The notes beneath the pieces were generated by a model. The model was not told the origin of the DNA. It searched no databases and saw only the letters and a list, made by a program, of their open reading frames with translations. From Candidatus Bathyarchaeota archaeon (GTDB lineage Archaea; Thermoproteota; Bathyarchaeia; Bathyarchaeales; DTEX01): a stretch of DNA of 64,000 bases. The position numbers and the translations under genes are program-made. The stretch spans positions 416,001-480,000 of the forward strand of contig CAVQNT010000006.1 of NCBI GenBank assembly GCA_963714275.1, read 5' to 3'. Each line of letters starts with the position of its first letter. Positions within the stretch are counted from its first letter, which is position 1. This document shows positions 28 to 61,846 of the stretch, in pieces.

Positions 28-103
28 CCGTTTGCATGACAATACTTAATCCGTGAAGGCAGTCCTGTTTTGCGGCTTATTATTTCCATTGTTTTGGGGT
101 TTT

Positions 104-1357
104 TTAGAGGGTTGTGTCGAGATAAACTTGTTCCGTAAGCTCTGCAACATTTCCAATGCTTTCGACAGCAGCACAATTTACGGTGTGTGTTCCATCACCA
201 TACCCTGCGAGCGTAAAAGAACCCGTATATTCTTGCCATTCCCCGCTGTCTATTCTGTACATGGTTGCCAGTATCCCGCTCGCATCGTATGCTGAAATGG
301 TGAAGGTCGTTTGGTAATTGACGTGCTTCTCAGCGCCCTCCGAACTGTATGAAAGCGCTAAATCGGGGGGAGTCTTATCGGTACCGTAGCTCAACACCAA
401 GCTTTCTATCCCCGCCATGAACGCGTTCGAAGGGTTCATATCTGACCCTTCCACCTCGAAATATCTCGCCCTTGCGGTCCACCCCATTCTTCCGAGCCAT
501 TCTGTTCCCGTCTGAGTTGTTGCTATGCCTTGATCTATGAAGTACCAGTCTTGTATGCTTTCTCCCAGCAGGTTTTGGAAGCGGCTGGTCATTGCGTAGG
601 CGTATTCGCCAGAATACCAAATCTGCGTGGGGAAGTTTGTGGCAAAAGTTGTCACGAGAGCTTCTTTCCATTCTGTTTGGTTAAACCAGCCGTCTGCTGT
701 TCCTCGCTCGTAAACCGTTTGCCATGCGTAGCTCGGCTCCGACCACATGACCTTCTTCCCCATCTTCCATGCTTCGTGTATGCAGTCGTTTACATAGTCC
801 CAATCGGTGTTGTTTATTGCGGTGTTCCAGTTCCAACCATTTTGGGAAGCCACGTATGTCATTAATTCGTGTATGTACAATCCTGCGCACCATGGTCTGT
901 TTAGGGCGTTCTTGACTTGATCTAGATTTTTGTCCAAGTATATGTCCTTCCCGTCGTAACTGACGAAGTCTGATGAGATGGCAGTGTAGTAGTACATTAC
1001 TTTGTTGTTCTCCGCAAACAGCATGTCCGACGTTGGGACGCTTACGCTGCTTCTCGTCTTGAAGAACGCGCAACTCCAGCTTTTGTAGGCATTGTACCAG
1101 CTTGGATTACTGCCATACGCATGCAACGAATAAATGAAGCGTGCGCTGTCGGCGGGAGGCAAAGGCGGAAAAGACTCTGAAGCGATTATGTTCTGAAGGA
1201 AGTTTATTTGGGAATTCAAGAAGTCTATTTGAGAATTTAGACTACTGATTATTGAGGCGTAATTTATTATCGCCCCCACTAAACTGGCTACCAGCATTAC
1301 GCATATTATCATTAAGATGATGGCTACATTTCTGAATACAGCTTTCTTCTCACTCAC
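104..1357 (-). CDS. Membrane-anchored or secreted protein with a C-terminal Ig-like (OmpL47-type) domain
   Basis: 417 aa; N-terminal hydrophobic helix followed by a short coiled coil; C-terminal DKTPP...YRIDSGEWQEY...DGTHTV...GN motif. Confidence 0.6.
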   Translation of the reverse strand: MSEKKAVFRNVAIILMIICVMLVASLVGAIINYASIISSLNSQIDFLNSQINFLQNIIASESFPPLPPADSARFIYSLHAYGSNPSWYNAYKSWSCAFFKTRSSVSVPTSDMLFAENNKVMYYYTAISSDFVSYDGKDIYLDKNLDQVKNALNRPWCAGLYIHELMTYVASQNGWNWNTAINNTDWDYVNDCIHEAWKMGKKVMWSEPSYAWQTVYERGTADGWFNQTEWKEALVTTFATNFPTQIWYSGEYAYAMTSRFQNLLGESIQDWYFIDQGIATTQTGTEWLGRMGWTARARYFEVEGSDMNPSNAFMAGIESLVLSYGTDKTPPDLALSYSSEGAEKHVNYQTTFTISAYDASGILATMYRIDSGEWQEYTGSFTLAGYGDGTHTVNCAAVESIGNVAELTEQVYLDTTL

Positions 1358-1571: not shown

Positions 1572-1982
1572 ATGATCCAAATACATTTTTTGTTAAAAAA
1601 AATTTCGGTTCAGTTTGGGAAGCCTAGTCTAGTGTGCGATTTTCAAGAGCTGTACCGTTACCTCATGGACGATTTTCTAATCCAATACTGCCAGAATCTC
1701 AAGGTTAGAGACTTTACGGTTAAATCTGAAAGGCTTTCTAGAAACAAGATGGCGAAGAGGGAATACTTGAATGATCCTAAAACCTCAGACTTGATGAAGA
1801 AGCTTAACCTGTATTTTGAAGGCAAGGTTGAAATTCCCAGAATAAAATATGGTAGAAGGCAGTCTCTTGAGACCTTGATTAACGAAGAAGCCTTACTATT
1901 CGCCAAGTTTCTAAGAGATGAAAGAGAAGCATGGAATCCTAGAATCGCAAGTCTCTTGGTGTACGTCTACCTCTACGTCTAG
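1572..1982 (+). pseudogene. cas1: 5'-truncated solo Cas1 (casposase-like) C-terminal half
   Basis: S.QFGKPSLVCDFQELYRYLMDDF is the Cas1 SL..D..E.yR motif; C-terminal ETLINEEALLFAKFLR..W.P; homology starts at about 1605, just after the expected GFLH. Confidence 0.8.
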
Positions 1983-3329: not shown

Positions 3330-4882
3330 ATGCAGTTTAATAACAGCTTAACACTCAAAAAGCGCGTACTAATTTTGTCCATGATCATAATCTTCATCAC
3401 TTTCCCAGCATTAGCATCCGTCCAACAGACCAAAGCGATAGATGAAAACTACACATACTACGGTGTCGTGCCCTCTAAAATCTATAGATACACACTCGCT
3501 GATGGAAACAACCGCAACTCAGGTTGGTCACTCGGAACTGACGACACCACTCTCCTATCAGGAGCCATCAGCCTCAACGGGCACCTCGTCGCCATAGAGT
3601 CTTTGCTAGCGATTGTAGCTTATGAGGACGACACAAATGTAGAAGTTCGCGATTTGACACTTGGGATGTTGCTGGCTGAAGGCAACTTAGCAAGCATGGA
3701 AAAGAAGCTCGTGTTGCTGCCCAATGGCACTCACTTTAAGGTAGTTTCAGACAAGATGGTCTCTATCCTTCTTCTCAACTACCAACAAGAGCCATCTGCG
3801 ACTGTCAGTGAAGGACCGCTTCCACACACCTTCTACACGTCAGTTGACGGCTTATACGTCGGAAAAAGGTTTGTTTTCATGGCATCTGAACAGACAAACG
3901 TAATACCGACTCAGTCTACATAATACTCGCCTTGGAAAAGTCCACAATAACCGTGACCGATGAGGATGGAGGACAGGACAGTTACAGTCTAGAAGTGAAC
4001 TCGTATCAAGACATGGCATTAACGCCCTTCAAGGTCTACGAGATCGAGTCGACGGGCAACATCATGGTCCAATCAATGTTCCTAAGACACGACATATCAG
4101 ATCCCGCTTCAAGTATCGTCCCATGCTATCCCGTTCCATCCGCTCAAGGAGGCTTCGTGGGAACCTTCTTCATCGCAAGATGTATCACAGGCTGGGACGC
4201 CAGCAAAGACTACGGATACCGAATAGCAACCTCAGAAGACGCCCACGTGCTGGTGTACGACCTTGAAACACAACAAGTCAAAAACGACCTCACTGTGACA
4301 GGAGGAAGCGGAATATCCATCAAACCCTCAGCGAACGCGATAATCGTACAAAGCGACAAGCCGATCACGTTGACGCTGATCCACAACGCCAGCATCGAAC
4401 AGAGACGTACCGAACAGGTGGGAGGTTTGAATGGAGAATTCCAGGGATACGGTCACGGAGTTATGTTCATGGGCATCCAACCAAACCAGGATACAATGAT
4501 TCACCTACCAGTTGACGCGAACGTCGAAGCGTACTTCTTCGCCAGCGAGGAAACCCAGCTAACGATTGATGACAACACCCAAACGATTCAAGCAAACACG
4601 GGCTTTCTGTACACTGTTCTGGGAACCCACACAGTACGATCCGACCACAACGTTGTTCTACAGATCAACTTCTGGCCGCTTGAACCAGAAAACCAAGGAC
4701 TCTGGTACACTGGAGCAGTAATACCATGCATCGAAACAGTAAATAATAACCCAACTGTCACAATAACCTCGATTGGAGGAGGCTTCCCAATCATGTATGT
4801 GATAGTTGGTGCAGGTGCTGCTGCGGTCGCTGTTATCGTCGTTTTTTTGGTAATGAAAAAACGCAGTAGTAACCCTAGCTAG
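3330..4882 (+). CDS. Secreted beta-rich surface protein (IgGFc-binding-like repeats) with a C-terminal TM anchor, split near 3923
   Basis: Signal peptide; IVAYEDDTNV, VVSDKMVS and VQSDKPITL repeats; C-terminal hydrophobic helix followed by KKR. Confidence 0.55.
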
Positions 4883-17281: not shown

Positions 17282-17318
17282 CTATAAAGACTGTGAAGCA
17301 GGCAGAACAAGAGAAAAT

Positions 17319-17647
17319 GGCGGGCCACTGAGGTTGGACGCACAGTTTTCACCGGGTTCCATCGGACTCTTCACTCGTACCCGCACCCCTCTGAGCGCCG
17401 AACGTCCAAGCCTAGGTTGCTCCCTCCCGGGCCTAGCCAGGTTCACCTGGCAAACACAGTAACGGCCTCCTTACAGAGGACGCTCCGCGACCGCCAGCCC
17501 CAGAGGACGGATACTCATAGATGGACGACCGAGGTTCCCTGTGATCTTTTACGCCTCGCCTCAGCTGTCAGTCCGTCGTGAAGGGGGTTTACGGTCAAGG
17601 CTTTGAAGCCTCTCAAGGGACCCCTAGCCCCCCACTTGAGACCCGCC
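17319..17647 (-). ncRNA. ffs: Archaeal SRP (7S) RNA
   Basis: About 330-nt GC-rich intergenic stretch; ends GGCGGGU.../...GGCCCGCC pair; helix 8 signature AGGCCCGGGAGGGAGCAACCU. Confidence 0.88.
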
Positions 17648-17697
17648 AAGAAAAACTAACGCTTAAGGATGTTAATAAAAGCTTTTGGAAATCTAAC

Positions 17698-53077: not shown

Positions 53078-53139
53078 ACTTAATATTACATAAGATGCGG
53101 TATACTTGAATGTATTCTAACTGTTCCTCATATAAATTC

Positions 53140-53244
53140 CTAAATGACAAGAAATGCTATGATATCAGGCACTTCATCAGAGTCATACCCATAGTGTGCG
53201 GGTGAGAATCCAAGCAAATTGAACAGAAGCACAGCGATTCGAGC
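53140..53244 (-). pseudogene. Possible PD-(D/E)xK nuclease gene fragment
   Basis: ARIAVLLFNLLGFSPAHYGYDSDEVPDIIAF; no start codon. Confidence 0.35.
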
Positions 53245-53314
53245 CGCTAGCTGAGCTATTTCAAAAATATGAGGACATCTGACAAATGCGCGTTACCTCC
53301 CATAAACATAGAAC

Positions 53315-53590
53315 CTATTTACCCTTAGATTTCTGAAGATTCTTATACTCGTCCTCAGTCAGAATGAACCACTTAGCATAGAAGTTAGGTTTAACCCATA
53401 CTCCAGCACCATAGAAGACCTTAAGATACCCCTTTAGGGTGTGCATGCCTAAACCAGATTCCAAAGCATACACAGACATCAACTTATACTCATTCATGCT
53501 TTTACGGTTCTTTTCAATAAAACTCTTGAAATCCTCAAGCCTCTGCCGTCGCCCTTTGATAGCAGGTACGTCATGCGTAACCTCAGCCAT
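53315..53590 (-). CDS. Hypothetical protein, possibly winged-helix
   Basis: 91 aa ORF with a GGAGG SD. Confidence 0.55.
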   Translation of the reverse strand: MAEVTHDVPAIKGRRQRLEDFKSFIEKNRKSMNEYKLMSVYALESGLGMHTLKGYLKVFYGAGVWVKPNFYAKWFILTEDEYKNLQKSKGK

Positions 53591-53841
53591 TCCATTTAAA
53601 CCTCCTTAAACAAGATATACACATAAACATATGAAACCTTTTTATCTATAGGGGTACTCTCGCTCTATATTATATAATTAAGGGTTCACTCTGGACAAAT
53701 TATTTAATCTCAGATGATAAGACTTAGAATTAATAACCTAAACCCTAGACACCAAGAACATTAAGCAAAGAACCTAAAGGATAGCTGAGCTAGCGTGCGT
53801 GTGCGTGTGGGTTTTTAATACGAAGAGTAAGAGTAAGGATT

Positions 53842-54032
53842 TGGGTTTGGGGGTTAAAATTTAACACTTACTATGGTTTTACTTGTTCTTGTTCAGCTTT
53901 TCTCCTTACTAGATCTAGAGAAATTCTCTTATTCTTTAGACTCTTCGTTAACCAACTTCTTTTCTTCCATCTTTTAAGAGCCCTTTCCCTTCTTTTTCTT
54001 TCCTTTGCTGATTTCTTCATTTTTCTTTTCTC
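53842..54032 (+). repeat. Left 191-bp inverted repeat
   Basis: Exact reverse complement of 59070-59260. Confidence 0.95.
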
Positions 54033-54188
54033 CTTTCTATTACTCTATATATTACCCCCTTCACGAACGCCCATATGTGTGACTCATACAAAAAACCTAA
54101 ACGATAATGTAAATGCTTAAGCTTCTTTCTGTGATAGTATTCAGCGAACCACCAAATCCATCCACATATTTGCCAAGAATTGCTTAAA

Positions 54189-54374
54189 CTATTGTCTCGT
54201 CATAACGACTTCTTCTTTAAGAGTCTTCCTTTCTTTTTGCCATAGTTCCCCTTTTAACAGGTCTAGGACGGCGAATCGGATAGCCGCACTCCTAGATGAG
54301 TATATGCCCTTCCCAATCAGCTCATTCAGCCCCTCCAAGCAGGCTTCGGGCAACAAGAACGTCACCAACTCCAA
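54189..54374 (-). CDS. CdrS-like RHH protein, paralog of 9871-10062
   Basis: LVTFLLPEACLEGLNELI..G.YSSRSAAIRFAVLDLLKGELW. Confidence 0.8.
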   Translation of the reverse strand: MELVTFLLPEACLEGLNELIGKGIYSSRSAAIRFAVLDLLKGELWQKERKTLKEEVVMTRQ

Positions 54375-54518
54375 TTATAATCGCCTCCGTGTATAGGAAA
54401 TCGATCAATCGCCATATGAAAACCTTTCAGGCTCCTAAAAAGGATGTTAGGTGTCAGCGATATCTCAGCATAATATAGTATGCTTTCAGCGTAGGCTCAT
54501 ACTGCTGCTAGCTCAGCT

Positions 54519-54687
54519 ACCAGTATACTGCAGAGAGTGCTTTGCCAAGAGAAGGCCCGCAAGATCAGATTTTGGCAGAAGAAGATACTAGAAACCGTAT
54601 ACGCTAGTTATCAGCAAACTGAAGATTCATTTTATTTTTTTTCGTTTTCTCTTTTTAATATATTAATGCACAGCTCATCCAGAAGCT
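54519..54687 (+). repeat. About 169-bp direct duplicate of 59534-59703 (3' half of the CxxC-x17-CxxC gene and its terminator)
   Basis: Near-identical sequence from accagtatactgcagagag to catccagaagct. Confidence 0.93.
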
Positions 54688-54910
54688 GACTAGATATCAA
54701 AGGCTAATCTCTAACTGGGCGGTTGCAAACGGTATTCAACGAATCTCTGTATAACTTAAGCCTGATCTTTTCATCATCTTAAATAAGCTACTTCGATGGT
54801 GATGGCTGGATTCTACCTTTTCGGAGAAGCTCACTGACTTCATATCAAAAACCATTTGGTTAGCTACATTAATATTCGTGGTCCTTCATTGTAACCTCGG
54901 CAGTTAGGAT

Positions 54911-55687
54911 TTGGCAAGTGAAAAGGCCGGACGCCACAAAACGTTTGGTCGTTTTCAGTTCTATAATCCGACTGAGCGAGAGTTGGCGAGGAAAGCAGTC
55001 TTGAGAAGACAAATGGGGAGCGCGCGAAAACCGTATTGGAGAGGTAGGGGAAGAATTCCCGGTAGGGGAAGCGCGTACAAACATGTCAAGGCTCTCGAAT
55101 ACCTTGCCATACTAGCTGTAAAAAACAGTGTTGATGCAGTCGAGTTTTTTGACAGCATTGTGGAAGCTTGGAAGAAAGATGAGTCACAATGCAAACAGCT
55201 AACGGTTAGGTGCCGAGAGAGGGCAAGAGACTCAGCGGTCTTTTTATTCATCGCGACTCACAACACTATGGCTCAATTTTCCGTGCCGACTGCTGTCTTA
55301 CAAGGAGATAAGAGTCAGCTTGAACCTTACGTGAAAACCCTTGCCTCGAGAGCTCCGTCGACCGAAGAGAATGCGAAACCCCAGATTAAGGATTTGATAG
55401 CGGGAATGAAAAAGGTCAACCTGAAGGTTAAGGTGCTTGAGATTCCAGAACCGAATGCGATCTATACAAGATATGGCATAGAATCTCATGTCACAAACGT
55501 ACTTGTAGGGGACCAAACTGGAACAATAAGAATGTGTTTGTGGAACGAATATATCAAAACTGTTTCTAAGCACGACATAATTGAGATCGAAAACGGCGAA
55601 GTAGCCAATTACAGAGGCGAACTACAGCTAAGAATCAGGAGAAACGGAAACCTAAACGTTATCAAAAGAACTAGCTCACTCAGCTAG
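54911..55687 (+). CDS. SSB/RPA-like OB-fold protein with an N-terminal extension
   Basis: IKDLIAGMKKVNLKVKVLE, VGDQTGTIRMCLWN, IENG..YRGELQL. Confidence 0.85.
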   Translation: MASEKAGRHKTFGRFQFYNPTERELARKAVLRRQMGSARKPYWRGRGRIPGRGSAYKHVKALEYLAILAVKNSVDAVEFFDSIVEAWKKDESQCKQLTVRCRERARDSAVFLFIATHNTMAQFSVPTAVLQGDKSQLEPYVKTLASRAPSTEENAKPQIKDLIAGMKKVNLKVKVLEIPEPNAIYTRYGIESHVTNVLVGDQTGTIRMCLWNEYIKTVSKHDIIEIENGEVANYRGELQLRIRRNGNLNVIKRTSSLS

Positions 55688-55760
55688 AATCAGATAAAGA
55701 TTTTTCATAAAATAATAGCTCAGCTTGCCTTTGTCAAACAAGTCTTAAAGAGGTGTCTTA

Positions 55761-56045
55761 TTATTGTGTCAAGGTTATTTCGATCGTTGATATGTTCCTG
55801 CTTTTACTTTCGCCTTCTCTCGGCGGCATCTCCTCCGTTCCTATGCTGATTTTGCTTACATTCAGTTCTTTCATGAATCTATGCCTCACTATTTCGGCTG
55901 CGTCAACAGCGGTGTTTATTGCTTGTCCTCTCGCCTTCAACGTAACTTCCTTAACGTTTGGTCCAGCGAAACTCGCCATGATCCCCAAAACATAACTCAT
56001 TGGCGGTTTCATGCCCACAAACATAACTTTTGGCTCACTAGACAT
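55761..56045 (-). CDS. albA: Alba chromatin/RNA-binding protein
   Basis: VGMKPPMSYV, KARGQAINTAVDAAE, IGTE, STIEITL. Confidence 0.93.
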   Translation of the reverse strand: MSSEPKVMFVGMKPPMSYVLGIMASFAGPNVKEVTLKARGQAINTAVDAAEIVRHRFMKELNVSKISIGTEEMPPREGESKSRNISTIEITLTQ

Positions 56046-56168
56046 GACTCTGACTTCCCAACCTGTCACTCTGATAATACAGCAGACGGCTCCGCTTTTT
56101 AAGCCTTCGCAAAGTTAGTTAGCTCACTTAACATTAGATTGCTCTGGTTCTTTTTTGGGTGTGGCAGA

Positions 56169-57179
56169 TTATTCATTTAGTTCGTTCCTAAGTTGCTTGG
56201 TCTTCTCGGATAGGAACTCAACGATCTTCTTGTTGTCAAAGTGCGCTAGAGGTTTACCGCATTTGGGGCATCGGAAAACGTGGTTTATTGCTTCCTCAAA
56301 GGGAAGGCGTCTACAACCAAGCGTGTAACAACTGTAGAAGTCGTGGTTCTTTTCGTATTCCAGTCTTGTCTCAAGCTTTTCAAGAATGTGTTTCTTTTGG
56401 TTTGTCAAGAAGCCTTCGATTTGGTCTGGTTGGAGCCTCCAACGAAAATTGAACCATCCTGTGTTCTTGTCTCGGGTTCTTTGTAGGACTACGAGGGAAT
56501 GATCATAAAGCTTGTAAAGGATCTTGCGAACCGTATTCAGTTTGACGCCGCTTTTAGCTGTAATTTCCATGTCTGTAGTTTCGTCTACATGGCTGAGTAC
56601 CTCAACTATTTTGACGGCTTCTTCACCACCCAGAACTCTTGCCACTTTCATTACAGTATCATGGTTCACAAGGTTTTGTCGCCAGCTCCTCCAACCTGTC
56701 TTTACAAGTTTCTCCCTGATTTTGGGTGCTTCAGCGACCCATTCTAGGAGTGTCCAGAAACGTCTTTCGTCTTTCAGCCTTTCCGGTGGTACGCCTGCTT
56801 CCACACACCATTTTATGTAGCCTTTCTCAACTCTCGTTCGGAGTTCGCCTGTGCTTTCCACTTCTGCCACACTGAATCCTCTATCCTTCAAGTATCTACG
56901 TAAGCCAAATAGAATGTGTCCAGAAAGAGCATGTGCCACTTTGAAATGCGTTTCCCCATCAGCCTGCATCGCATCAACGATCTCTTCAGCAATTTTGACA
57001 GCGTCATCCAGATACCGTTTATTCTCGAAATCTGGGGGCTGAAAGGATGAAGATGGAATCCTGCGTTCCATATATTCGTGGTCTGGGAGTTTTAGAGCTC
57101 CAATCACTACACCTAAGATTAGGTCTCCCCACCCAGCGCCATCTATTAAAATCTCGTTTTCTGACATAAGCAAATCCAA
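56169..57179 (-). CDS. RNase H-like domain fused to a transcription factor E alpha paralog
   Basis: N-terminal IDGAGWGDLILGVVIG; C-terminal half closely matches TFE at 61327-61846 (VRKILYKLYD, GWF, FRCPKCG). Confidence 0.8.
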   Translation of the reverse strand: MDLLMSENEILIDGAGWGDLILGVVIGALKLPDHEYMERRIPSSSFQPPDFENKRYLDDAVKIAEEIVDAMQADGETHFKVAHALSGHILFGLRRYLKDRGFSVAEVESTGELRTRVEKGYIKWCVEAGVPPERLKDERRFWTLLEWVAEAPKIREKLVKTGWRSWRQNLVNHDTVMKVARVLGGEEAVKIVEVLSHVDETTDMEITAKSGVKLNTVRKILYKLYDHSLVVLQRTRDKNTGWFNFRWRLQPDQIEGFLTNQKKHILEKLETRLEYEKNHDFYSCYTLGCRRLPFEEAINHVFRCPKCGKPLAHFDNKKIVEFLSEKTKQLRNELNE

Positions 57180-57330
57180 GTCCGAGACCTAAACTGCCAG
57201 AATTCTAGCTAGGTCCTTACCTTTCAATCGTGTTCGCTGCTTTACTAAATAATTGGGAACAAATCTGAAAAACCTTTCCTTTCTGACTTTGCAACTTCAT
57301 TCAACACTAGAAGAAAAAATGAGTAGTTAG

Positions 57331-57612
57331 CTAGGGAAGGCATTGTTTCAGCACTGAGCTAGCAGTAGCCAACCCACCATTTAAAAGAGATGACCGATGG
57401 GCTTCTTCCTTCTGACTACCAACGATAGCCGACCCGCCAGAAACCTCTTGATATGTTTCCCTGAGTAATTCCATTTGTTCCAAAATGTCTTTAACTAATT
57501 CAGAAACTTCTTCTTCAGTTAGTTCTATGGTGGAGAACGAGATTTCATTTGCATTAATGGAGACATCGAAAAGTCTTCCGTCTTCACTTGAAACATAGGG
57601 TTGGACTTTCAT
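57331..57612 (-). CDS. Small hypothetical protein
   Basis: 93 aa; overlaps the upstream gene's stop codon. Confidence 0.45.
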   Translation of the reverse strand: MKVQPYVSSEDGRLFDVSINANEISFSTIELTEEEVSELVKDILEQMELLRETYQEVSGGSAIVGSQKEEAHRSSLLNGGLATASSVLKQCLP

Positions 57613-57806
57613 GTTGTTGTCTCCTCAACTTCCCATTCATTTACAATATAGTTAATGTCTTGGTCTGTAATATCGTTAGGGTCTCTATAATGTTGATGTT
57701 CCTCTGCAAATTTATCCGCAGCATCCTTAGAAGCAAATATTTTCACAAGGTTTCTCGCATATCCCCGTCCTAAAGGACAATTACACCAAACAAGATATAT
57801 TCTCAC
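57609..57806 (-). CDS. Small virus-like protein
   Basis: MRIYLVW...LVKIFASKDAADKF...YIVNEWEV pattern. Confidence 0.55.
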   Translation of the reverse strand: MRIYLVWCNCPLGRGYARNLVKIFASKDAADKFAEEHQHYRDPNDITDQDINYIVNEWEVEETTT

Positions 57807-57809
57807 TTA

Positions 57810-58078
57810 TCAAACACTTCCTCGACTTTTAGAATTGCTAAATTTCTGAATTATGTAGCTAGCTGCTTCTTTGTTCTTATGGTGTTCCATGAGACAGATG
57901 GGATCACCAATCTTAAACAGCTTGTTGCATCCGTCGCATTGCTTGATTTTATCCTCGAGTTCTGTGTAGATGGAGCAGTGAATATAGTTCGTTACGATAA
58001 ATTCTCTGATTTCAGAGCAGATATTGTACCCGTCACACTTCTTCTTTGCCTCATCAGCTTCAGGTTTTTTGGACTCAA
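57810..58078 (-). CDS. Small Cys-rich protein (homopolymer frameshift near the start)
   Basis: GGAGG SD; KKCDGYNIC...HC...CDGC...IC. Confidence 0.45.
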
Positions 58079-58196
58079 TGTACTCTATCCTCCCAAGTTT
58101 TTCTTAAATCTCTTTAATATCTTTCGCGTATTTAATAATCAGAAGCGCGCTAAATTAAATTTACTAGAAGTCTTAATCTTGCTTTTAGTGGTTATT

Positions 58197-58571
58197 ATGA
58201 CCGAGATATCAGAAAGGAACAGGGAATGCGCACTCAAAGTTTTGGAAGAGTTAGGCTATGAAAAGGTGTCCATACCCAATTCTCCAATAATAGGGGCATG
58301 CTGTGACATAAGTATCAAAAAGGAAAGGAGTCTGGAGTTTTGTGTAATGTGCGAATATCCATATAAAGAATTTAAGAAATGGATGGGAAAAGGATCGCCA
58401 GAAATAAGTCTACAGGAAGTGCAAGAGCGATTAGGTAAATTGAATGGTCTCCTCAAAAAATGCATTGAACATGGTGGCAGCCAAAAAAAGAAAAAGGTTG
58501 AACAAACAAGACGGTTTCAAAAGGGTAAACAACCAAGATGGTTTCAACCCAAACTTCCCAAAGGTTTATAG
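58197..58571 (+). CDS. Hypothetical Cys-containing protein
   Basis: Likely true start of ORF 57879-58571 is MTEISERN, after a TATA-like box. Confidence 0.5.
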   Translation: MTEISERNRECALKVLEELGYEKVSIPNSPIIGACCDISIKKERSLEFCVMCEYPYKEFKKWMGKGSPEISLQEVQERLGKLNGLLKKCIEHGGSQKKKKVEQTRRFQKGKQPRWFQPKLPKGL

Positions 58572-58845
58572 TTTTTTTCATAAAAAAATGAACTGGTAAA
58601 AACAAAAAACACGCGCAATCTTTCGGAATCAACGATATTTTCATGTTAACCCAGTAACTTTCGAGAACGTCGTAAAAACCACGATTAAGTTTGACCCTGA
58701 CATTCTCGCTCCCTTCGAACTTGAAGTAGAACCAAAGATGGATAGTCTACAAGACCCTGACACGCGAGTAGCGAGGTGTACATTCTTCTCTTTTTATCAC
58801 TACGTTCTATAGAGTCTAATATGCAGACTGTATTAACTGCAGCGA

Positions 58846-58920
58846 CATCAGGTCTGTGATTTTAGGATCGTTCAGGTATTCCCTTTTCGCTTTCTATATT
58901 CTGGAAAGACTTTCAGTATT
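58846..58920 (-). pseudogene. cas1: Second Cas1 remnant (25 codons)
   Basis: NTESLSRI*KAKREYLNDPKITDLM versus KSERLSRNKMAKREYLNDPKTSDLM at 1722-1796. Confidence 0.8.
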
Positions 58921-59069
58921 TAATTTTAATGCACACACACAAAATTGCATCCCGCATCTTTTCTTCTTATGATGATCTTGGATGCTAAAGCGTTAAGTAG
59001 GTTTGTTAGGATAGATAGGAGAGAACAAGTTCTAGTCAAGCGAGAACCACCAAGAAATATAGAAAAAAA

Positions 59070-59260
59070 GAGAAAAGAAAAATGAAGAAATCAGCAAAGG
59101 AAAGAAAAAGAAGGGAAAGGGCTCTTAAAAGATGGAAGAAAAGAAGTTGGTTAACGAAGAGTCTAAAGAATAAGAGAATTTCTCTAGATCTAGTAAGGAG
59201 AAAAGCTGAACAAGAACAAGTAAAACCATAGTAAGTGTTAAATTTTAACCCCCAAACCCA
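59070..59260 (-). repeat. Right 191-bp inverted repeat
   Basis: Exact reverse complement of 53842-54032. Confidence 0.95.
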
Positions 59261-59450
59261 CACAGTACACTTGAAATTCTTTGCCATTGTATCCAAAATT
59301 AGCAAGTTTTCAGCTAACCATATTAAGTTTTTTAACTTCGTCATGGATAAGTTTAAAAGAGAGGGCAACGTCTCTCTGAGATTACGCAGGAAGCAAAGCT
59401 TCTAGAATTAGACTTTATTCTTGCAAACAAAAAATAGGAGTGAAAACAAC

Positions 59451-59605
59451 ATGGAAAGTCGTGAAATGCACAAAGCAGTTTGCGCCGAGTGCGGTAAAGA
59501 ATGCGAAGTTCCCTTCAAACCCGACGGCACAAGACCAGTATACTGCAGAGAGTGCTTTGCAAGAGAAGGCCCGCAAGATCAGATTTTGGCAGAAGAAGAT
59601 ACTAG
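59451..59605 (+). CDS. CxxC-x17-CxxC zinc-ribbon protein
   Basis: MHKAVCAECGKECEVPFKPDGTRPVYCRECF; the 1-bp deletion is corrected by the duplicate at 54519 (FAKRRPARSDFGRRRY*). Confidence 0.9.
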
Positions 59606-59796
59606 ACACCGTATACGCTAGTTATCAGCAAACTGAAGATTCATTTTATTTTTTTTCGTTTTCTCTTTTTTATATATTAAATGCACAGCTCATCCAGAAA
59701 GCTAAGCTTACTACAGGTATCACATAATTAATAACAGTGGGTAAATATTAAATATGTTTTGTACATTTGTTGGACAGATCTATGAGGGGATAAAGT

Positions 59797-60066
59797 ATGT
59801 CGAAGGTTTCTAGCGGTGTAGTTATTAGTCATAGTAGAGGCCCAAAAACTCAGAAGCCGAAAGAATATTTGATACAGTTGTCTGGTGTTAAATCAGTTGG
59901 TGAAGCAGGGCAGTTAATTGGGCGAAAGGTAGCTTGGCCACTTGGAGAAAGAAAATGCTTAGGAAAGATCGTTTCTTTGCATGGGAAGAACGGACTCGTT
60001 AGGGCTCGTTTCAGAAAAGGTGTGCCGGGTCAAGCATTGGGAAGTCTAGTGGAAATAATCGGTTAG
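59797..60066 (+). CDS. rpl35ae: Ribosomal protein eL33 (L35Ae)
   Basis: RGPKTQ, LIGRKVAW, GKI..HGKNGLVRARF. Confidence 0.92.
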   Translation: MSKVSSGVVISHSRGPKTQKPKEYLIQLSGVKSVGEAGQLIGRKVAWPLGERKCLGKIVSLHGKNGLVRARFRKGVPGQALGSLVEIIG

Positions 60067-60080
60067 TGAGCTAAGTCAGC

Positions 60081-60104
60081 TAAAATTTAATCCCCAAACC
60101 CAAA
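60081..60104 (-). repeat. End-motif copy, exact inverted match to 2051-2074
   Basis: taaaatttaatccccaaacccaaa. Confidence 0.8.
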
Positions 60105-60320
60105 AAAATACGCCATTAGGATAAGCTCCCTATTTTATATACTATTGCAAAGTACATTTAATACAGTTAATGTGAGGGGGCTTGAAGCAGGGCGTGCTGA
60201 AACGCTTAAGATTTTCGCGAAGAGCTATAGGCATTGCTAGCTAGTTTTCCGCTTTGAAGAATATAATTGGACATCATAAATTTTAAGAATCCCTTGTTCA
60301 GATAAACCAACCAGTGATGC

Positions 60321-60785
60321 ATGTTGAAAAACTTGGAAATTAAGGTATTGACTCCAAAAAACTTTAAGAAATATGGACGAATCCTCTTTCCGACTGAAGA
60401 AGAAAATAAAACAATACATGACCATTCAGTGGCCTACATAGTGCTCGAAAAAGCCGTCTCAAAAGGCTGGCTGATGTCCCATTATTCAGTGTCAAAAAGG
60501 TTCACGGACATCATGGAAAACCATCCCAACACCAAAGAAACTTTTGAGCCACTTTGCGGAGCATCCATCATAATCTTAGCCCACGGTCCAACGCCCGAAA
60601 ACCCCGAAGCTTTTCTGCTCGATAAGCCCGTTGTGCTGTACGAAGGCGTGTGGCACGATGTTCTGGCGCTTTCGGAAAACGCAACAATGCGGATAAACGA
60701 GAACACTGAAGTTCAAAGTGTTCGCCAAAAACTCTCGTTCACAATCAAAGCTAAACTATGCACGGAAACAAACAAAAAAAGATAA
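60321..60785 (+). CDS. Ureidoglycolate lyase-like cupin
   Basis: LTPKNFKKYG, MENHPNTKETFEPL, GVWH. Confidence 0.7.
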   Translation: MLKNLEIKVLTPKNFKKYGRILFPTEEENKTIHDHSVAYIVLEKAVSKGWLMSHYSVSKRFTDIMENHPNTKETFEPLCGASIIILAHGPTPENPEAFLLDKPVVLYEGVWHDVLALSENATMRINENTEVQSVRQKLSFTIKAKLCTETNKKR

Positions 60786-60806: not shown

Positions 60807-61334
60807 CTACCTACAGAGTCTCATCATTTCTTTATGGAGACTCAGCACTCTTTCGGCTGAAGGATGGTCTTCGCCCAGCCTATTTTTTAGCTTCTGAACC
60901 GTCTGCCTAATCGGAACCCTTGTCTCACCTTCGACAAGTTTGTCCGCATAAGTCACAATTTTCTCCTCCAAAGTATGCGGAATATACGTTCCTTCAGGCC
61001 AACCGAACTCGCGGGCTTCGTCGTCGCTGATGCCACCGCCGAGATGTCTTTCGATGATGTTAGCCAAACTGTCAGGTAAATCCTGTGAACGTGCAATTTT
61101 GGCTCCAACAATCGGATGGTTGATGCCGTGAGTTTTAGCCCGACCTAAGTCATGCAGAAGCGCACCGATATGAACCAAATCAACATCGACACGAGCTCCG
61201 TTATTAGCACATTTCTTTACCATCTGGACAGCAACCTTCGCCACAGCTTCACAGTGACGAACAACATTCGGTGAACAACCACTTTCCTCAAGAATCCTAA
61301 TGGCTTCCTCCGGAGAAGGAAGGGACTTACTCAC
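60807..61334 (-). CDS. HDIG/HD-domain metal-dependent hydrolase
   Basis: HCEAV, LLHDLG, H..VGA, ERH, YADK. Confidence 0.9.
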   Translation of the reverse strand: MSKSLPSPEEAIRILEESGCSPNVVRHCEAVAKVAVQMVKKCANNGARVDVDLVHIGALLHDLGRAKTHGINHPIVGAKIARSQDLPDSLANIIERHLGGGISDDEAREFGWPEGTYIPHTLEEKIVTYADKLVEGETRVPIRQTVQKLKNRLGEDHPSAERVLSLHKEMMRLCR

Positions 61335-61846
61335 CTAATTCGCTCCTTATCTGTTCGACCTTTTTGGATAGAAACTCTATTATTTTGCTGTTGTCGAAAT
61401 GCATCAAGTGATTGTCGCATTTTGGGCAACGGAAAACGTATTCGGTTGCTTCTTCGAACGGAAGCCGTTTGCACCCCACTGTTTGGCAGAAATAGAAATC
61501 ATGGTTCTTCTCGTAGTTCAGCCTAACCTCGAAGCTTCTCCAAAATGTGTTTTTTCTGGTTTGTTAGGAAACCGTCGATCTGGTCAGGCTGAAGTCGCCA
61601 GTGGAATATGAACCATCCCGTGTTTTTGTCTCTTGTCCTTCTCAGCCCCACAATAGAGTGGTCGTACAGTTTGTAAAGAATCTTACGAACCATGTTAAGT
61701 TTAATTTCAGTTTTGGCTACAATCTCCTCGTCCATGATCTCGTTAACTTGGCTGAGAACCTCAACAATTTTTACTGCTTCGTCGCCACCAAGGATTTTGG
61801 CAACCCTAATCAACGTTTCATGGTTCACAAGGGCCAACAGAATCAC
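61327..61846 (-). CDS. tfe: Transcription factor E alpha (frameshifted)
   Basis: Winged helix VRKILYKLYD..GWFIFHW and zinc ribbon FRCPKC; canonical neighbourhood. Confidence 0.92.

Follow-up and report, generated by a model that had tools for sequence, protein, structure and literature searches.

The stretch of DNA analysed here, called the window throughout, covers 64,000 nucleotides of a Candidatus Bathyarchaeota archaeon (positions 416001-480000 of contig C6 of the source genome, G000; C-numbers denote the contigs of this genome and other G-numbers denote related genomes). The segment at 53842-59260 of the window had been annotated initially as a 5.4-kb composite element bounded by inverted repeats. 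Our analysis indicated that the segment is probably not a discrete element or a new type of transposon, and that its repeats are better read as passive repeats within a mosaic, recombination-prone chromosomal island. The 5.4 kb would be the middle of a rearrangement-prone island of about 7 kb, from about 53.1 to 60.24 kb. Its core would be an old, vertically linked trio of genes coding for an SSB-like OB-fold protein, an Alba paralogue and a fusion of a conserved N-terminal domain with the transcription factor TFE (N-domain::TFE). Multi-copy modules, namely a 49-codon open reading frame (ORF), a Zn-ribbon gene, a ribbon-helix-helix (RHH) gene and a cas1 shard, would have gathered round this core. 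The inverted repeat consists of two opposed copies of the 49-codon module, each ending in the motif of a repeat family associated with solo cas1 genes. These arms would be passive products of duplication or gene conversion between two motif-bearing sites. Homologous recombination between them could invert the intervening segment. No gene would be placed under another promoter by such a flip, as each arm consists of an entire small gene whose 3′ end faces outward. The features of the segment and its surroundings are given in Table 1.

A repeat search of the window showed an inverted repeat of 195 nt with 5029 nt between its arms, and chance cannot explain an inverted repeat of such length and identity. 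The initial annotation had located this repeat correctly but had described it as 191 nt and perfect, and the arms differ at a single base (C/T at 54033; identity 99.5%). Both arms, read inward, start with TGGGTTTGGGGGTTAAAATTTAA, as had been noticed, and the reported lack of a target-site duplication was confirmed, with the 30-nt outer flanks sharing at most a 4-nt direct word. Each arm is made up of a 49-codon, Lys/Arg-rich basic ORF and a 22-nt tail, and TTAAATTTTAACCCCCAAACCCA begins six bases past the stop codon of the arm ORF. Searches of the whole genome with blastn and tblastn showed four copies of this ORF in G000, which were the two arms, a copy at C2:106992-107138 (96% amino acid identity) and a decayed copy on C3. 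The homologues of the ORF numbered 10. The same searches showed that most pieces of the segment are multi-copy in G000.

The two arms have different surroundings. From sequence comparison, the right arm lies in the native context of the module: about 100 nt upstream of it recur at the C2 (C2:106873-107154) and C3 copies, and the spacer downstream of it recurs, with the Zn-ribbon gene, in a module on C3 (C3:105731-106507). The inner flank of the left arm matches C5:168067-168158 instead, and there the flank runs straight into the tail motif, the ORF being absent. Between the arms, identity starts in a GA-rich run on the inner side and, on the outer side, stops within the CCCAAACCC of the motif, and both of these patch-end sequences were present at both sites. 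Such ends would fit a duplication or conversion patch between two motif-bearing sites. At the right tip, the native spacer sequence sets in again after only 12 nt of the CCCAAA side.

The outer 22 nt of the arms were found to be the motif that bounds a solo cas1 unit on C7, and the link to Cas1 proposed initially was in this respect borne out. A regex scan for the motif TTAAAWTTTAA(T)-CCCC(AAACCC)n gave about 40 copies in G000. The 22-nt pattern, allowing at most one mismatch, occurred 29 times in G000, 4 times in G002, 3 times in G010, twice in G004 and once in each of three other genomes. It was missing from 40 of the 47 family genomes, and a reversed control gave 0 everywhere. No copy was found in viral contigs or in 80 fetched metagenome loci. 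Judged by this distribution, the tail motif is best described as a genome-specific dispersed repeat family. A role as a general promoter or terminator was rejected, given the many family genomes without a copy and the other Zn-ribbon copies that carry no motif. Among the motif copies, homology spans about -18 to +100..170 on the CCCAAA side, and in the window pair, unlike all others, it extends on the opposite side, from -171 to +23. The geometry in the window is the reverse of that of the C7 cas1 unit, with the CCCAAA sides facing away from the 5.4 kb. On the model of the C7 unit, the 5.4 kb would therefore be external to the ends and not enclosed by them.

The trio of SSB-like gene, Alba gene and N-domain::TFE appears, from its linkage elsewhere, to be a conserved chromosomal core and not captured cargo. 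The full-length fusion was found in five metagenome loci (L068-L072), which gave the sole view of the contexts of the fusion clusters and of the homologues of the 49-codon ORF. The fusions of these loci were 64-92% identical to that of the window, and an Alba gene lay 110-560 nt away in all five. The SSB-like gene stood beside the fusion in three of the five loci, and the other two contigs ended before its expected place. In L070 (a 120-kb contig) and L068 (154 kb), both at 92% identity, the fusion, Alba and SSB-like genes had the relative order and orientation of the window and were followed by a second SSB/Alba pair and then by RHH-like genes. A gene for L13e lay about 8 kb away in L070. All three genes were present in L071 (77%), where the SSB-like gene is inverted with respect to the other two, while L069 and L072 (64%) showed the fusion with Alba before the contig ended, Alba being flipped in L072. 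None of the five loci carried the tail motif, and no 49-codon ORF, Zn-ribbon gene or cas1 shard was found in them either. The initial annotation had proposed a composite element that collects host genes and had named the comparison with relatives beforehand as a refuting test. In that comparison the cargo was syntenic without the repeats, which argues against such an element.

The N-domain of the fusion (56676-57179; 168 amino acids, ILIDDAGWGDLILG...) had no Pfam or PDB sequence-family match, and its initial description as RNase H-like was not confirmed in these searches. It stands alone in relatives, with 60-71% identity across the family, and was present in most of 300 genomes sampled from the order; its syntenic orthologue in G000 lies on C5. 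Contigs in three metagenome runs (X1, X2 and X3) span the junction between the N-domain and TFE, and the fusion is therefore not an assembly artefact. No match spanning both halves was found in 46 other family genomes, nor did the 150 best matches listed for 300 further genomes of the order include one. In a large protein collection, 20 protein clusters covered 98-100% of the fusion at 58-96% identity. Trees were built with FastTree (LG+gamma, midpoint rooted), and the stand-alone proteins (18 TFE and 96 N-domain) were the top matches plus 6-8 from relatives. The 21 fused TFE halves formed one clade (support 0.98), as did the 21 fused N-domains (support 0.81), and neither clade contained any stand-alone protein. 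Since the fused halves form single clades, the fusion would have arisen once and be old, and we take it from these trees to be an old family of single origin.

Residues 170-336 of the fusion match the archaeal TFE-alpha models NF004910 and TIGR00373, including the Zn-ribbon cysteines. The TFE half scored 68 bits with PF02002 (cut-off 22.9), 164 bits with NF004910 (cut-off 180) and 135.5 bits with TIGR00373 (cut-off 149.5). Scores above the Pfam cut-off and below the equivalog cut-offs fit a diverged TFE paralogue. The fusion differs from archaeal TFE-alpha in these lower scores and in being joined to an N-domain encoded by a gene of its own in all the other genomes searched, and an ordinary TFE gene is also present. 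This ordinary, syntenic gene is intact in six relatives, and the extra base at 61532 that splits it in G000 was missing from all covering contigs of X2, X3 and X4 and from G002 and G004. The native TFE was consequently not taken as dead, and the idea that the fusion replaces a dead native TFE was dropped, the base at 61532 being an assembly error or a private mutation. No description of an N-domain::TFE fusion was found in literature titles and abstract openings, in a search that left most subscription journals outside.

The genome of G000 is archaeal, with a size of 2.64 Mb in 10 contigs and a GC content of about 43%. DNA nearly identical to the window was found in metagenomes of freshwater sediment, wetland and peat, and population variants were read from the Logan contigs of four metagenome runs (X1-X4) at an identity of at least 95%. 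Collinearity with sister genomes extends as far as 51220 and is restored at 60258-60321 (at 60321 in G001), which places the island at a synteny break. Two joints, 57202>59711 (X2, depth 25, shorter side 73 nt) and 57212>59715 (X1, depth 20.6), delete 2.5 kb (57203-59714), taking away the right arm and the Zn-ribbon gene and bringing the fusion next to the gene for ribosomal protein L35Ae. A third joint, 57348>59336 (X1, depth 58.5, shorter side only 21 nt), is a 2.0-kb indel (57349-59335) and reproduces a join in contig C137 of G002. In X4, 60105 was followed by 58924 (depth 3.3). Contig cover from X1 was scant or nil across 53134-53767.

Short CTAG-rich linkers were a recurrent feature of these boundaries, and linkers of 13-26 letters were seen between joined pieces in other strains. 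The word CTAGCTAG had 108 occurrences genome-wide, compared with an expectation of 38 from base composition, and CTAG itself was depleted (5346 against 9972 expected). In the window CTAGCTAG was found at 4875, 51655, 52454, 57205 and 60237, with related words at 53782, 57357 and 57857. Words of this type contain stops in all frames and lie in intergenic DNA and at module boundaries.

As a separate observation on the island, in a contig of G002 (G002:C124, L018) the DNA that follows L35Ae differs from that in G000, and about 2.3 kb from L35Ae is a gene resembling that of ribosomal protein S10, whose homologue in G000 is on another contig (about C2:136 kb). This placement would imply that ribosomal protein genes were relocated between close relatives at repeat-rich sites. 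Another repeat, about 130 nt long, occurs more than 15 times in G000 (L016 602-735; C2:612109, C6:391390). It may be a miniature mobile element and seems unrelated to the inverted repeat.

The cas1 shard of the initial annotation was confirmed. It is 54% identical over 39 amino acids to the intact Cas1 of G000 and 86% identical at the nucleotide level to the cas1 gene on G001:C11; it was found by sequence comparison, and the Pfam Cas1 scan of the genome lists nothing in 53842-59260. The search for an intact cas1 in trans, which had been suggested along with a search for further copies of the segment, gave two intact genes, at C7:144190-145224 and C4:100201-101235, but no second copy of the segment or of its junctions was found in G000. 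The gene on C7 lies in a 4.4-kb unit (about C7:143225-147623, given also as C7:143203-147647) with an intact solo cas1 of 344 amino acids and small ORFs, one of them of MazE type. This unit is bounded by one inverted motif pair, and its inverted ends are 75-78 nt of CCCC(AAACCC)n and CT-rich sequence. Two short units, of 0.7 kb and 2.1 kb, have the same ends. The AT palindrome GATTAAAATTTAAT flanks the C7 unit on both sides, and in all three close pairs (the C7 unit and the two short units) such a palindrome has the same plus-strand reading at either end. This would fit a target duplication of 13-14 nt, a lead only, as it comes from 3 pairs with a chance probability of about 0.125. No empty site for the C7 unit was found in 6 other genomes of the genus, and the unit sits in a larger variable stretch.

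No Cas2, protein-primed PolB (PF03175) or CRISPR array was found in G000 (CRISPR by a crude scan; other PolB families were not searched genome-wide), and the cas1 genes are for this reason called solo. The C7 Cas1 keeps Glu/His/Asp/Glu aligned with the catalytic residues of solved Cas1 structures. A sister genome shares the layout of the left end, that is, the motif, about 100 nt and then cas1. The Cas1 of G000 matched structure 4n06, which we take to be Cas1 of Archaeoglobus fulgidus, at E 4e-24, and structure 6opm, presumably a casposase, at E 4e-11. About 28 cas1 fragments are spread over G000, most being the last 30-45 codons only (for example at C2:483587, C3:5368, C4:96038, C5:87750 and window 1605-1949). 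The fragments have almost identical starting residues (..QTLETLINEEALLFAKYLR..) and vary at synonymous positions, and their homology ends with the stop codon. Some form convergent pairs, and one partner in these is the intact cas1 of C4. A correctly oriented motif was found within 3 kb of 6 of the 28 cas1 3′ ends, against about 0.6 expected by our own estimate. On the sequence features listed above, units of the C7 type may be a polymerase-less relative of casposons.

Two further observations concern cas1. The stretch at 1605-2075 of the window is a decayed counterpart of the C7 cas1 unit. The whole of the 9.9-kb contig C9 carries a cas1 fragment, an Alba gene 93% identical to that of the window, an overlapping SSB-like gene and a Zn-ribbon ORF, and its Alba-then-SSB pair recurs as the second pair in L070. 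C9 may be an unplaced repeat or a separate replicon.

The readings that compete with passive repeats in a mosaic island were weighed on this evidence. An invertible segment, whose 195-nt arms recombine and flip the 5-kb piece as a regulated or recurrent polymorphism, had been the second option of the initial annotation, and we consider it unlikely. The near-identical arms are long enough for homologous recombination and could support inversion, and opposite-strand joints do exist at 55686/58932 (X1, depth 25) and at 53786/59061 (X4, depth 4.4, shorter side 60 nt); the SSB-like gene is also flipped in L071 and Alba in L072. However, both joints lie off the arm boundaries, and the one low-depth X4 contig ties the left flank to the inner right side without an arm. 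No invertase or recombinase matched among the 10 ORFs scanned, and a flip would leave the pairing of promoters and genes unchanged. A non-autonomous composite mobilised by Cas1, in which the outward ends of solo cas1 units serve as inside ends and are moved in trans by an intact Cas1, has a very low probability in our view. It could draw on the arm tips with the motif of the C7 unit, on the retained catalytic residues and solo state of cas1, on the excess of oriented motifs near cas1 3′ ends and on the shard inside the segment. It would leave unexplained the lack of a target-site duplication and of a second copy, the 12 nt at the right tip, the reversed geometry and the trio that is syntenic in relatives without repeats. 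The population indels use other breakpoints as well, and the C7 unit is itself a putative mobile unit, for which no empty site was found in the 6 genomes of the genus.

An integron-like cassette array is also quite improbable. Here small genes with a 3′ motif or an AGCT/CTAG linker would be inserted and excised site-specifically, and the arms would be two cassettes. Module boundaries and population joints coincide with linkers, 13-26-nt linkers separate joined pieces in other strains, CTAGCTAG is in excess despite the depletion of CTAG, and the piece at 57357-57857, with AGCTAGC on both sides, is missing in L070. Yet no integron-type integrase or other recombinase was matched among the 10 ORFs scanned, the linker motif was defined post hoc, and the Alba boundaries are without a linker in 5 of 6 cases (window and partner sides); fragile or recombinogenic CTAG-rich intergenic DNA could give the same pattern. 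An artefact, with the left arm or the orientation of the segment being a mis-join of the long-read assembly, is extremely unlikely. Single-base indels separate G000 from all covering contigs of 2-4 runs at five sites (55681, 55721, 57864, 58171 and 61532), conserved genes on C5 also show frame breaks, and no independent contig spans either arm. The five indels are probably residual assembly errors, as the contig comparison suggests, which leave the inverted repeat unaffected. Against a mis-join, the arms differ at one base and so were assembled separately, the 195-nt repeat is far shorter than long reads, and for each inner flank a separate paralogous context exists at another place in the genome; a fold-back chimera would be expected to give one long palindrome and not short arms 5 kb apart. 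A wider proposal, to which we give a slim chance, is that the motif and the AGCT/CTAG linkers are working recombination sites of a polymerase-less system driven by Cas1. In that system 4.4-kb units with 75-nt ends, and miniatures of them, would insert by the 3′ ends of genes, the integrase would shuffle cassettes into islands, and the 5.4 kb would be an inside-out composite that Cas1 could move or flip.

Several points weigh against reading the arms as passive repeats in a mosaic island. None of the contigs of X1-X4 spans an arm, and the exact arrangement of G000 is for that reason without independent confirmation. The metagenome data consist of short contigs from mixed strains, which perhaps include paralogous loci of at least 95% identity, and in G002, the closest relative at the species level, fragmentation hides the locus. 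As L068 and L070 are almost identical, the two amount to a single observation. A AGCTNAGCT/CTAGCT-type linker lies within 25 nt of 15 of 36 homology-block ends and 8 of 16 joint ends, compared with 2.5% of the genome, but the linker words were chosen after the breakpoints had been seen and some ends are the same site, which makes this a descriptive figure and not an independent test. The origin of the second arm was not observed, and an identity of 99.5% fits a very recent duplication and ongoing conversion alike. The Cas1-associated motif at both tips and the inner cas1 shard also mean that an enzyme, and not general recombination, could have placed the modules.

Casposons, as described in PMC4046053, have terminal inverted repeats of 25-602 nt (median 56) and target-site duplications of 1-27 nt (median 15), and a polymerase is given as invariably present there and in PMC6452270. 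The genome of G000 resembles them in having solo cas1 genes with apparently intact catalytic residues, one of them within inverted ends of 75-78 nt that have a 13-14-nt AT-rich direct repeat on either side. The segment differs from them: it has no cas1 gene (a 39-residue shard only), no PolB, no target-site duplication and no second copy, and its motifs face outward. Its 195-nt repeat might count as terminal inverted repeats, but only the outer 22 nt are common to the cas1-linked family, and these face the opposite way to those of the C7 unit. The C7 unit is also without a protein-primed PolB (PF03175), and the Cas1 of G000 is no closer to 6opm than to 4n06. No description of casposon-type units in Bathyarchaeota or Bathyarchaeia was found in a literature search that left most subscription journals outside.

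Composite transposons with inside-out insertion-sequence ends, as well as hypervariable islands and segmental inverted duplications, are familiar concepts in prokaryotes. The segment is like a composite transposon or inside-out ends in having host-like genes between two inverted copies of a repeat, but its arms encode no transposase and are not complete elements, there is no target-site duplication, and the cargo is syntenic without arms. With integron arrays it shares small single-gene modules, a conserved short sequence on the 3′ side and a variable order among strains, and it differs in the lack of an IntI-type integrase match among the segment ORFs and in having modules in both orientations. 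The likeness to hypervariable islands lies in mosaic paralogous modules, in gain, loss and inversion at the strain level and in the site at a synteny break. Unlike these, it holds extra genes for chromatin, ssDNA binding and basal transcription, with single-copy ribosomal protein genes interspersed.

Table 1. Positions, strands and properties of the features in and around the segment (window coordinates)
Feature	Position	Strand	Remarks
Linker TAGCTGAGCTAG, then CA/CT-rich sequence	53782..53841	.	CA/CT type as seen on the CCCAAA side of other motif copies; X4 joint at 53786
Left arm	53842..54036	-	49-residue ORF at 53871-54020 (minus strand), then tail motif
Tail motif TTAAATTTTAA-CCCCCAAACCC	53843..53864	-	CCCAAA side points left, out of the segment
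RHH module	54088..54510	-	ORF 54189-54374; 92% identical to C2:939235-939656; right boundary at a CTAG-type linker
Orphan Zn-ribbon 3′ fragment and downstream flank	54519..54684	+	Direct copy (97.6%) of 59534-59699
SSB-like protein, 258 amino acids	54911..55687	+	Residues 158-250 are the OB fold
Alba paralogue	55761..56069	-	PF01918 58.4 bits (cut-off 25); TIGR00285 92 bits (cut-off 88.25)
N-domain::TFE-alpha fusion, 336 amino acids	56169..57179	-	Residues 1-168 conserved N-domain; residues 170-336 TFE-alpha
Two overlapping small ORFs (57331-57612 and 57609-57806)	Piece 57357..57857	-	AGCTAGC at both sides; absent from L070
ORF with doubtful first ~100 codons	57879..58571	+	Likelier start at 58197
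cas1 shard	58846..58950	-	About residues 253-296 of intact Cas1
Right arm	59066..59260	+	49-residue ORF at 59082-59231 (plus strand), then tail motif
Tail motif	59238..59259	+	CCCAAA side points right, out of the segment
Complete CxxC-x17-CxxC Zn-ribbon gene	59421..59621	+	Family at at least 6 loci in G000
L35Ae ribosomal protein gene, single-copy	59797..60066	+	Named by sequence reading, not by family scan; within the variable zone
Third tail motif	60080..60104	+	14 nt past the stop codon of the L35Ae gene
Ordinary syntenic TFE gene	61327-61846	-	Split in G000 by one extra base at 61532

Ten ORFs were scanned against protein-family models, and the wider window was not scanned protein by protein. 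Family models supported the SSB, Alba and TFE fusion genes of the initial annotation, and none of the 10 ORFs matched a transposase or recombinase family, in agreement with the reported absence of an intact transposase. No polymerase family was matched either. The ORF called a CdrS-like RHH protein did match Pfam RHH_1 (E 3.6e-5), but the match to the CdrS model NF058555 was weak (29 bits against a cut-off of 100), and the ORF is a generic RHH protein. The SSB-like gene has 4-5 paralogues in G000, and its C-terminus is uncertain because X1 and X3 contigs are without one base at 55681. The Alba of the window, besides its copy on C9, is 84% identical to a copy on C7. The ORF at 57879-58571 has indels at 57864 and 58171 relative to 3-4 runs, and its identity to L070 is 90% in nucleotides but 73% in amino acids.

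The captured gene fragment that had been noticed at 54519-54684 was found to copy the last third of the Zn-ribbon gene together with its downstream flank. A reading of this direct repeat as attL/attR was rejected. Integration at the 3′ end of a gene sets the side on which the gene fragment lies, and the orphan fragment is upstream of the intact gene, on the wrong side; its left edge is moreover a CTAG linker joined to the unrelated RHH module.

The description of some ORFs as virus-like was not upheld. The PHROGs gave only two matches, at E of about 0.005 (none below 0.004), and no viral-contig relatives were found for the three proteins tried (the fusion, the SSB-like protein and the C-terminal portion of the ORF at 57879). 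The only PADLOC output was Csa3-like winged-helix noise from the TFE domain, and an origin from a virus or a defence system was dropped for lack of support from PHROGs, PADLOC or viral contigs. Integration at a tRNA gene was likewise set aside as a reading: no tRNA was found in the window, and the sole Rfam match there was an SRP RNA at 17318-17648.

The evidence does not support a new Cas1-associated class of elements that gathers chromatin and transcription genes. What the genome of G000 does hold are polymerase-less solo cas1 units, about 40 copies of their end motif and about 28 cas1 3′ fragments, and, if these units are mobile, they would represent a polymerase-less variant of casposons. 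The island indicates that single-copy ribosomal protein genes can sit in a zone that is rearranged between strains. In some Bathyarchaeia, the trio brings together an Alba paralogue, an SSB-like protein and a second TFE that has a widely conserved N-domain as its fusion partner, and it is a candidate accessory module of transcription initiation or chromatin.

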